Shown in pieces: positions 49,295 through 49,908 of a DNA stretch of 54,396 nt; position 1 is the stretch's first letter; every line of letters starts with the position of its first letter. The translations under genes and the position numbers were made by a program. This DNA comes from Escherichia phage MagusPhagus, in the sequence record PP925836.1; one strand, given 5' to 3'. The notes below the pieces were generated by a model that did no database searches, was not told where the DNA came from, and was given only the letters and a program-made list of their open reading frames with translations.

Positions 49295-49423
49295 TCAGGC
49301 AGCGACCACGTAATAAACATAGCCCCCCAGCATGATAACACCGATAACAGTCAGGGCCGCAAGGAAAACAAAAAGCGTAGCCAAAAGCCACGCCCCAAAC
49401 CAGTTAAAAAAGCTCTTAAGCAT
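49295..49423 (-). CDS. Micro-ORF, 42-aa membrane peptide (MLKSFFNWFGAWLLATLFVFLAALTVIGVIMLGGYVYYVVAA)
   Basis: ATG with RBS GAGGA; hydrophobic; not in the ORF track. Confidence 0.4.
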   Translation of the reverse strand: MLKSFFNWFGAWLLATLFVFLAALTVIGVIMLGGYVYYVVAA

Positions 49424-49424
49424 T

Positions 49425-49628
49425 TTAAACGTCCTCAATTACCCCACCTTTCACGCGCTCTTTAATATCCCATACGTGAGGCTTGCATATTTCTTGATAA
49501 TAGTGATCCGGCCTGCTGCCGAAATACCATTTACCATCCATATAAAAATAAACGCCAGAAAAATTACCAGGTGCGGCCTTTGTTGCTGATTCTGGAATTT
49601 TCCATTCTCTGTAATGTTTAAACCGCAT
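49425..49628 (-). CDS. Hypothetical small protein (67 aa), paralog of 49618..49812
   Basis: Shared G-x-FSG-x-Y(F/Y)Y motif. Confidence 0.4.
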   Translation of the reverse strand: MRFKHYREWKIPESATKAAPGNFSGVYFYMDGKWYFGSRPDHYYQEICKPHVWDIKERVKGGVIEDV

Positions 49629-49812
49629 GTAATGACACCTCCCGGATAAGTTTACTTAATTCAATGTCTGGTAGTCTGCGAAAATGCTGTACACCATCGA
49701 CAAAGCGCACGCAATAAATATCGCCTACATTGTTGTAGTAATAACAGCCGCTAAAACCAATTCCCGCCAATTTAGCGTTATCAGGCAACGTATAGCCGCC
49801 AACATTTTTCAT
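49618..49812 (-). CDS. Hypothetical small protein (64 aa), paralog of 49425..49628
   Basis: RBS AGGTGA; shared motif GIGFSGCYYY. Confidence 0.4.
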   Translation of the reverse strand: MKNVGGYTLPDNAKLAGIGFSGCYYYNNVGDIYCVRFVDGVQHFRRLPDIELSKLIREVSLHAV

Positions 49813-49815
49813 AAA

Positions 49816-49908
49816 TCACCTCATATGGTATTCAATAAACCACCTGATAAACAGGCATAAGGCAATAAAACCCCAGCAGCAGCACATATAAAACAATGTA
49901 TCGTCCAT
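49816..49908 (-). CDS. Micro-ORF, 30-aa Cys-rich hydrophobic peptide (MDDTLFYMCCCWGFIALCLFIRWFIEYHMR)
   Basis: ATG 2 nt after the upstream stop (TAATTATG). Confidence 0.35.
   Translation of the reverse strand: MDDTLFYMCCCWGFIALCLFIRWFIEYHMR

Follow-up and report, generated by a model that had tools for sequence, protein, structure and literature searches.

Five small open reading frames of phage MagusPhagus

The window analysed here is the whole 54,396-nucleotide (nt) stretch of DNA deposited for Escherichia phage MagusPhagus (sequence record PP925836.1), a temperate coliphage of the mEp021/mEpimmI group. Five small hydrophobic open reading frames (ORFs) in it had been put forward by an initial annotation as membrane-peptide genes with a ribosome-binding site (RBS) or translational coupling: a 30-amino acid (aa) frame at 49816-49908 on the minus strand (ORF30), a 33-aa frame at 2398-2499 on the plus strand (ORF33), a 24-aa frame at 20439-20513 on the plus strand (ORF24), a 42-aa frame at 49295-49423 on the minus strand and, as a possible further case, a 21-aa frame at 2330-2395 on the plus strand. 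All five are present at these coordinates and strands and, as had been stated, none can appear in a track of ORFs of at least 60 aa on account of its length. Comparison with related genomes leads us to conclude, with a probability of roughly 0.85, that ORF30, ORF33 and ORF24 are real protein-coding genes, that the 42-aa ORF is a frameshift fragment and that the 21-aa ORF is a product of chance. This conclusion draws on direct observations: the conservation of the coding frames, the signals for translation, the place of the genes in their operons, the frameshift and the hydrophobic character of the helices. The relatives comprised tens of related genomes, including IMG/VR genomes, gut-metagenome loci, mEp phages and E. 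coli prophages; some of the IMG/VR and metagenome contigs may be one phage sampled twice.

ORF30 (MDDTLFYMCCCWGFIALCLFIRWFIEYHMR) is a single-helix micro-gene of the early operon, in the block of minus-strand genes that spans ~9.2-54.4 kb. It fills exactly the 98-nt gap between a 72-aa gene (49911-50129) and a 64-aa gene (49618-49812). The sequence GAGG lies 7 nt 5' of its ATG, within the end of the preceding gene, and its TGA stands 3 nt before the next ATG, the RBS of the following gene (GAGGTGA) being contained in the last codons of ORF30. A match was found in 41 of 46 distinct IMG/VR genomes; 34 of these were full-length by blastn and 33 of the 34 were intact, the sole non-intact copy carrying a TGG to TGA change, and the remaining divergent alleles were intact by hidden Markov model (HMM) search. 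Among the gut-metagenome loci that contain ORF30, 21 of 23 were complete and intact and the other two were cut by contig ends. Over 22 unique DNA variants the nonsynonymous (pN) and synonymous (pS) differences were 0.045 and 0.31, a pN/pS of 0.145, compared with 0.37-20, and stops, in the five other frames of the locus. The variable sites were distributed over the three codon positions as 8/5/18 (chi-square p=0.011). The alleles of three lineages are 63% identical in DNA and 45-48% identical in protein, with a ratio of nonsynonymous to synonymous substitution rates (dN/dS) of 0.20-0.22, and the divergent alleles keep the pattern M.CCWG..LF.RW.IE (M8, C-C-W-G, L19-F20, R22-W23, I25-E26). A terminator-like hairpin inside ORF30 (49857-49841) was considered as the cause of this conservation and is a weak candidate, as it leaves the codon-position pattern unexplained.

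ORF30 is annotated in phage mEp010 as mEp010_37 (WWQ70200.1) and is missing from the mEp021 record; the exact protein occurs on 429 public contigs, labelled 'hypothetical protein'. A phmmer search against 1.84 billion representatives returned 0 matches, with low power at 30 aa, and a scan of genome contigs, one genome per species, found ORF30 nowhere beyond this phage group. A consensus scan of 48900-50300 yielded no promoter-like site on either strand, against 3.1 expected.

Several further observations concern the surroundings of ORF30. A 96-aa protein from Logan assemblies (P0015, 4 contigs) is ORF30 fused to the downstream 64-aa product by loss of the stop codon; because of this read-through fusion, a 90% protein cluster merges ORF30 with the unrelated 64-aa protein. 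The fusion is a weak hint that ORF30 and the 64-aa product could work together. One relative (L010/L167, IMGVR_UViG_3300045988_076772) has an 88-nt insertion just upstream of its ORF30 allele, with an extra 32-aa hydrophobic ORF (MWLIDLILGCWLFALVGFVCYFAWEEGKHNGR) that overlaps the start of this divergent allele. The small soluble genes between ORF30 and a 78-aa gene described below, at 49425-49628 and 49618-49812 on the minus strand, look like paralogues with a shared G(I/N)FSG.Y(Y/F)Y motif, and only one of the two reaches the Pfam threshold for DUF7274. Upstream, the 98-nt gap at 50130-50227 (minus strand), between a 206-aa gene and the 72-aa gene, is the place where mEp010 annotates the 33-aa mEp010_35. 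A GTG-started N-terminal extension of the 72-aa gene, with a CPFC motif, is open there in the window and intact in 7 of 35 relatives, and the gap is probably non-coding.

ORF33 (MNGKRMFALAFAIAMAIAVNVALFGGLYLLVNP), a single-helix micro-gene with a basic N-terminus and an Ala-rich helix, lies in the plus-strand replication operon (0.6-7.7 kb), downstream of the replication-protein gene (1213-2265). A Shine-Dalgarno sequence, GAGAGGA, stands upstream of it and is conserved in relatives. The region upstream of the gene at 2661-3779 is mosaic and was aligned by a blast-anchored procedure. ORF33 was matched in 41 of 43 genomes and all 32 full-length matches were intact; in another set, one relative has ATT in place of the ATG. 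A first set gave a pN/pS of 0.18 and variable sites of 6/9/19 by codon position (p=0.017), and 21 unique DNA variants, encoding 15 protein variants, gave a pN/pS of 0.21. One antisense frame over ORF33 is open too, lacks a start codon and shows the usual artefact of shared wobble positions. The frame is annotated as mEp044_13 (WWQ70511.1) with the same two ends. Five of the six mEp phage records give it as a 'hypothetical protein', the mEp021 record lacking the annotation, and the exact protein is found on 152 public contigs. The next gene begins 160 nt downstream in the window and ~900 nt downstream in many relatives.

In distant relatives (L059-L100), whose homologues of gene 2661-3779 have 57-67% aa identity, a different family of hydrophobic micro-ORFs of ~23-31 aa, MWRL[LF]xLPxPVIIAxxxMYxxVM, occurs 1-15 nt upstream of that homologue in ~35 of 40 loci; the slot is conserved and the sequence is unlike ORF33. 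The stretch from the replication gene to ORF33, 2266-2397, is well conserved as DNA across relatives and is non-coding, and it contains no sigma-70 consensus and no Rfam match. PHANOTATE calls a 41-aa ORF, mEp044_14, within it.

ORF24 (MCENYVMEVIIIIIGLLCILLSTL) is the last ORF of one of the small plus-strand cargo cassettes within the tail-gene region. Its ATG follows by 1 nt the TGA of a KilAC-like gene (20189-20437, PF03374), and an intrinsic terminator hairpin (20514-20532, plus strand; a 7-bp stem in which 6 pairs are G-C) begins directly after its stop codon. In relatives, the version of this terminator has a longer T-run. ORF24 thus closes the cassette, as its stop abuts the terminator and its start is coupled to the KilAC-like gene; a promoter-like site of the cassette is located at 19586, so that ORF24 sits between this site and the terminator. 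Of 50 related genomes, 14 carry ORF24; the 11 copies that are full-length are all intact. Its 7 unique DNA variants gave a pN/pS of 0.19 and variable sites of 5/2/15 (p=0.0018). In the allele of locus L105 the second half has strongly diverged, with length and hydrophobic character kept. The protein is present neither in any deposited phage record nor in a collection of 15 billion proteins. In loci L115-L144 the DNA 3' of the KilAC-like gene, equivalent to the window from 20438 onward, is a mosaic in which at least three alternative modules replace ORF24: a 23-aa hydrophobic ORF (MDEVIENVLVVAGAIAIVYAFLN) followed by a protein that begins MKIEVLALI, the same signal-peptide-like MKIEVLALI protein directly, or a soluble protein that begins MLKYDGQ.

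For the three genes together, the in-frame pN/pS of 0.14-0.21 lies within the range of 0.07-0.26 obtained for flanking accepted genes from the same data, and the remaining frames gave 0.32-82, mostly with stops. The codon-substitution patterns thus bear out purifying selection for ORF30, ORF33 and ORF24, and it is for these three that the description as small hydrophobic genes with an RBS or coupling stands; it fails for the 42-aa fragment, whose frame is not maintained beyond codon 33, and for the 21-aa frame, which is not conserved. The maxima of a 15-residue Kyte-Doolittle window are 2.2, 2.5 and 3.2 for ORF30, ORF33 and ORF24, with hydrophobic segments of ~17-20, 26 and 16-19 residues, respectively, and hydropathy is the sole basis of the transmembrane call.

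RefSeq annotation by the Prokaryotic Genome Annotation Pipeline (PGAP) omits all three micro-genes, in keeping with its ab initio size limit of 40 aa (PMC11188072), whereas GenBank records based on PHANOTATE do include ORF30 and ORF33. The group is Nus-dependent and non-lambdoid (PMC11893012), and the searched passages of this mEpimmI paper make no mention of the ORFs. The 48400-51200 region matches only the Mexican E. coli phages mEp010, 013, 021, 044, 515 and 554, at 85-88% identity, and is carried by 35 of 5,426 complete E. coli genomes. The nearest complete genome is that of E. coli 09-00049, with 99.9% identity across 1,351 nt of this region. Its prophage is integrated in abgT, and relative to this prophage the window shows a circular permutation; because the two differ by 1-5% or more over the whole genome, the window represents a distinct isolate.

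The 42-aa and 21-aa frames

The minus strand at 49186-49423 contains a disrupted gene for a 78-aa membrane protein with two helices, of the mEp021_28 / mEp010_40 / WP_065225583.1 family (phrog_14059). In mEp010, mEp021 and RefSeq a 237-nt gene of 78 aa is annotated at this position. The 42-aa ORF consists of the first 33 codons of that gene and 9 out-of-frame codons, GYVYYVVAA, followed by a stop, and the remaining 45 codons make up an ORF in another frame (49186-49341). The frameshift site is a run of six cytosines on the plus strand (49323-49328), G6 on the coding strand, in which the window has one G more than the G5 of 09-00049 and strain FAH, as an alignment that included mEp010 and mEp021 also showed. 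In intact relatives the run is either G5 and then C or an in-frame G6 and then T. In a tblastn search, the 78-aa protein matched all related loci once and at full length, apart from the window and L155 (IMGVR_UViG_3300045988_076424), where the match splits into two frames; L155 carries an independent +1 allele, G7. Public protein sets contain both the 42-aa +1 product (P0097, 5 contigs) and a 59-aa -1 product (P0096) of the same G-run, which is either an indel hot spot or a site of recurrent homopolymer sequencing error.

The 78-aa family forms 63 clusters at 90% identity, nearly all of them 78 aa long, and its source-named members are all from E. coli. The repaired product of the window matches phrog_14059, of unknown function, with E=3e-13, and is 57-100% identical to the 78-aa proteins of mEpimmI prophages; the window copy differs from mEp021 gp28 in being frameshifted after codon 33. 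AlphaFold2 with 25 homologues models the 78-aa protein as a hairpin of helices 2-40 and 42-70, with a mean predicted local distance difference test score of 76. The most conserved parts, namely the loop MFITWSLPEF, R55 and the C-terminal GFCW..PDWDD, all follow the break. As encoded, with its frame broken at codon 34, the window copy is a disrupted family member without the loop, the second helix and the tail. On the evidence of these alignments, the 42-aa ORF is the truncated head of the 78-aa gene and not a micro-gene. The name 'cell division protein FtsK' that PGAP/RefSeq attaches to the 78-aa protein is backed by no Pfam or NCBIfam match, and 78 aa is far too small for FtsK.

The 21-aa ORF (MGATLAYLFAISLLWSVSERI) is not a gene. 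Its frame is kept only by the window and a near-identical twin, and in the 20 remaining variants it is broken by in-frame TAG stops or by indels in the G-run directly after the ATG; what is conserved at this place is the nucleotide sequence.

Chance level, micro-gene array and rival explanations

Translated in six frames, the window contains 605 ORFs of 20-59 aa, of which 64 (~10%) are hydrophobic by the criterion of a 15-residue Kyte-Doolittle window of at least 2.0. A small hydrophobic ORF by itself is therefore no more than chance, and it is conservation that separates the cases. Thirteen of the 64 also pass a conservation filter. In the six-frame conservation scan, many ORFs antisense to real genes are flagged because one antisense frame shares the wobble positions; these were discarded as artefacts, and they account for at least three of the 13. 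The survivors on the coding strand are ORF24, ORF30, two ORFs at 51638-51754 and 51762-51869 and members of an array at 35235-36307. The scan uses the longest ORF, so ORF33 was tested separately from the ATG at 2398, the upstream ATG at 2371 not being conserved, and from this true start it passes.

The array comprises 12 tandem ORFs of 22-47 aa on the minus strand, between gene 36304-36846 and the small-terminase-like gene 34739-35224. Each consists of a polar head and one hydrophobic helix, and 7 of the 12 pass the conservation filter with pN/pS of 0.12-0.32. Some of the members are paralogous (a7/a10, z=8.0; a6/a11, z=5.6; a9/a10). In RefSeq, the ~1 kb of the array is unannotated in E. coli 09-00049 (L005 13319-14305). 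The two further conserved micro-ORFs belong to the early operon on the minus strand; they encode 38 aa (51638-51754, MRVDKNTVKAVFCVVAFVFMVVIAGATAAIISYIGGVM, pN/pS 0.21) and 35 aa (51762-51869, MKKIAMLSAAVAVAAVYLSASLYITVAIVKLITDM, pN/pS 0.29) and probably correspond to mEp010_30 and mEp010_29, respectively. The array and this pair show that the phage group carries many small hydrophobic genes; that their density is unusual for one phage, as put forward in the initial annotation, is a supposition. Elsewhere on the minus strand, 31800-33200 (09-00049 L005 16350-17723) encodes a 457-aa protein after a DNA-packaging (terminase-like) gene. RefSeq gives it the label 'anti-CBASS protein Acb1 family protein'; at its position in the head-gene module a portal protein would be expected.

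A role of the micro-ORFs as type I toxin-like peptides that depolarise the membrane (TisB, Ibs, ShoB, Hok, Ldr) and are checked by antisense RNAs is unlikely. Their size of 24-33 aa and single hydrophobic helix do match such toxins, and we take ORF24 in particular to resemble Ibs/ShoB-type peptides in form. However, no sequence similarity to any family was found in Pfam, PHROGs or NCBIfam, consensus scans detected no promoter-like site around ORF30 or antisense to ORF24, and scans of the whole window gave no Rfam match and no tRNA. The ORFs are, moreover, embedded in operons and coupled, and do not stand behind a long structured leader with a promoter of its own. Damage to the membrane in the manner of a toxin is rated less likely than the modulator role proposed below, since no antisense promoter or small RNA was seen.

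Alternatively, the micro-ORFs could be translated spacers, that is, upstream ORFs that serve termination-reinitiation onto the next gene while the peptide itself is irrelevant. The short distance from the ORF30 stop to the next ATG and the RBS in its last codons would suit such a role, as would the micro-ORFs of the distant relatives that end immediately before the 2661-3779 homologue. Selection nonetheless acts at the level of amino acids, as the pN/pS values indicate, and the motif and hydrophobicity of ORF30 are kept in alleles that have diverged to 63% nt identity; ORF33 is separated from its next gene by 160 nt or, in many relatives, by ~900 nt, and ORF24 is last before a terminator and has nothing to couple to. 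We regard the spacer reading as quite improbable.

It is distinctly improbable as well that the isolated micro-ORFs are dispersed paralogues of the array, one family spread by duplication. ORF30 and ORF24 do share the design of the array members (Met, a few acidic or polar residues, a hydrophobic helix, often a basic tail), and similarity within the array is evident for the pairs given above. In a kinship test of 210 pairs by Smith-Waterman scores against shuffles, however, ORF30 showed kinship with nothing but its own divergent allele (z=13.9), and the best score of ORF30, ORF33 and ORF24 against each other or the array was z <= 3.6; this is the chance level, as the shuffles also destroy the order of polar head and hydrophobic tail. 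The charge polarity of ORF33 is, in addition, opposite. The common ancestry of the micro-peptides raised in the initial annotation, whether among the isolated ORFs or with the array, is therefore not supported by their sequences.

For the 42-aa ORF, it is very improbable that slippage at the G-run produces a functional single-helix variant and so switches the 78-aa gene on and off or between a long and a short form, and programmed frameshifting or phase variation at this site was rejected. Indels recur there, with two independent +1 alleles (the window and L155) and the public P0097 (+1) and P0096 (-1) products. However, 5-7 G make a short run for phase variation, and many relatives, with GGCTG or GGCGA, have no such run at all; ~95% of alleles are intact at 78 aa; the out-of-frame tail is not conserved and the most conserved part of the protein is lost; and homopolymer sequencing error explains the same pattern. 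The least probable reading is that all five are chance ORFs of AT-rich intergenic DNA that encode no functional peptide: the 64 hydrophobic ORFs among 605, of which the 21-aa ORF is exactly such a case, and the absence of the other three from PGAP/RefSeq speak for it, but frame retention, pN/pS, third-position bias and conserved RBS contradict it for ORF30, ORF33 and ORF24, and the omission is explained by the size limit and offset by the PHANOTATE-based calls.

Several points weigh against the conclusion that ORF30, ORF33 and ORF24 are genes for membrane peptides and the 42-aa ORF a fragment. The pN/pS values were taken pairwise over unique sequences without a tree, so that the events counted are not independent of one another. 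The RBS of the following gene also constrains the 3' end of ORF30, and only about 28% of the relatives carry ORF24. None of the three falls in a Pfam, PHROGs or NCBIfam family, and no homology to any characterised protein emerged from these databases or from the 1.84-billion-representative search with ORF30. Translation and membrane location are predicted from sequence; the transmembrane character derives from hydropathy only, and the hydrophobic run of ORF24 is short for a bilayer span. Finally, the frameshift in the window either truly inactivates the gene by mutation or stems from a homopolymer sequencing error.

Proposed mode of action and comparison with known systems

The three micro-genes would be translated from polycistronic phage mRNAs by means of their own Shine-Dalgarno sequences and stop-start coupling, and the peptides would then become inserted in the inner membrane. 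From the positive-inside rule, an N-out/C-in orientation is predicted for ORF30, with its MDDT head and RWFIEYHMR tail, and for ORF24, with an acidic head and a basic or neutral C-terminus, and an N-in orientation for ORF33, with Lys and Arg in its MNGKR head. The peptides may work by helix-helix contact with a membrane protein of host or phage and thereby serve as small modulators in takeover of the host or in exclusion; in our view they are neither enzymes nor parts of the virion. A small modulator that binds a host or phage membrane protein is the mode that we would place first, tentatively. The early-operon neighbours of ORF30 are envelope-active genes that encode the 78-aa hairpin protein, Ipe and a protein with six transmembrane helices, and ORF30 would act beside them in early lytic development. 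ORF24 may act from the prophage.

Hydrophobic micro-ORFs recur in the same slots: the extra 32-aa ORF next to ORF30 in L010, the 23-aa ORF after the KilAC-like gene and the ~23-aa ORF before the 2661-3779 homologue. This recurrence is consistent with the peptides themselves being selected. It is conceivable, though doubtful, that mEpimmI phages and their distant relatives keep slots that require a hydrophobic micro-ORF whose sequence is freely replaced. If so, there would be, with the 12-gene array, at least 17 single-helix genes per genome, and a generic, sequence-tolerant role could be indicated, for instance to anchor the polycistronic mRNA during its translation, or the product of a neighbouring gene, at the membrane, or to supply a set of decoys for defence or exclusion systems bound to the membrane.

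Conserved genes are missing from the reference annotation of this coliphage group, which is prevalent in the human gut. The early and cargo regions of these phages encode several putative membrane peptides, ORF30 standing beside the envelope-active Ipe, and such micro-peptides are cheap candidates for host-takeover, exclusion or anti-defence factors. The results also advise caution in small-ORF scans: of five calls, one was a homopolymer frameshift and one was noise, and random small ORFs of this genome resemble membrane helices in about 10% of cases.

Among characterised proteins, MgrB, AcrZ, MgtS, KdpF, PmrR and Caulobacter SidA are 29-49 aa long and use one transmembrane helix to bind a larger membrane protein. 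By analogy, the same mode of action is proposed for the three ORFs, which have no sequence similarity to these regulators and differ from them in being phage-encoded and operon-embedded. The type I toxins TisB, IbsC, ShoB, LdrD and Hok are alike in size and in the single hydrophobic helix; the three ORFs differ from them in that no antisense RNA or own promoter was detected and no homology was found. Holins and antiholins, the single-gene lysis proteins MS2 L and phiX174 E and the exclusion proteins T4 Imm and Sp are small phage membrane proteins that act on the host envelope and are mostly of 60-110 aa. ORF30, ORF33 and ORF24, at 49.8, 2.4 and 20.4 kb, lie outside the lysis cassette with its holin, lysozyme and spanin genes (~37.1-38.3 kb), and no homology to these small phage proteins was found.

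The closest counterparts are the deposited proteins mEp010_37 and EQP36421.1 of E. coli, and mEp044_13 / GDJ46065.1, which are members of the ORF30 and ORF33 families. In length and position they agree with the genes of the window, their sequence is identical or nearly so, they carry no function or description, and they are absent from the RefSeq/PGAP prophage annotation and from the mEp021 reference record. ORF30 and ORF33 are in this sense already known, as hypothetical proteins listed in GenBank phage records. More broadly, tens of thousands of families of hydrophobic intergenic microproteins have been reported in Enterobacteriaceae (PMC11188072), and 28% of 4,539 families of small proteins from human microbiomes are transmembrane (bioRxiv 10.1101/494179). 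The Entero67K set of the former study and the microbiome families of the latter, of 15-70 codons, are under purifying selection, mostly hydrophobic, mostly without a Pfam match and missed by annotation; the three ORFs, compared with them by description, are alike in kind. The three peptides are thus new, uncharacterised members of a well-known class, the small transmembrane proteins.

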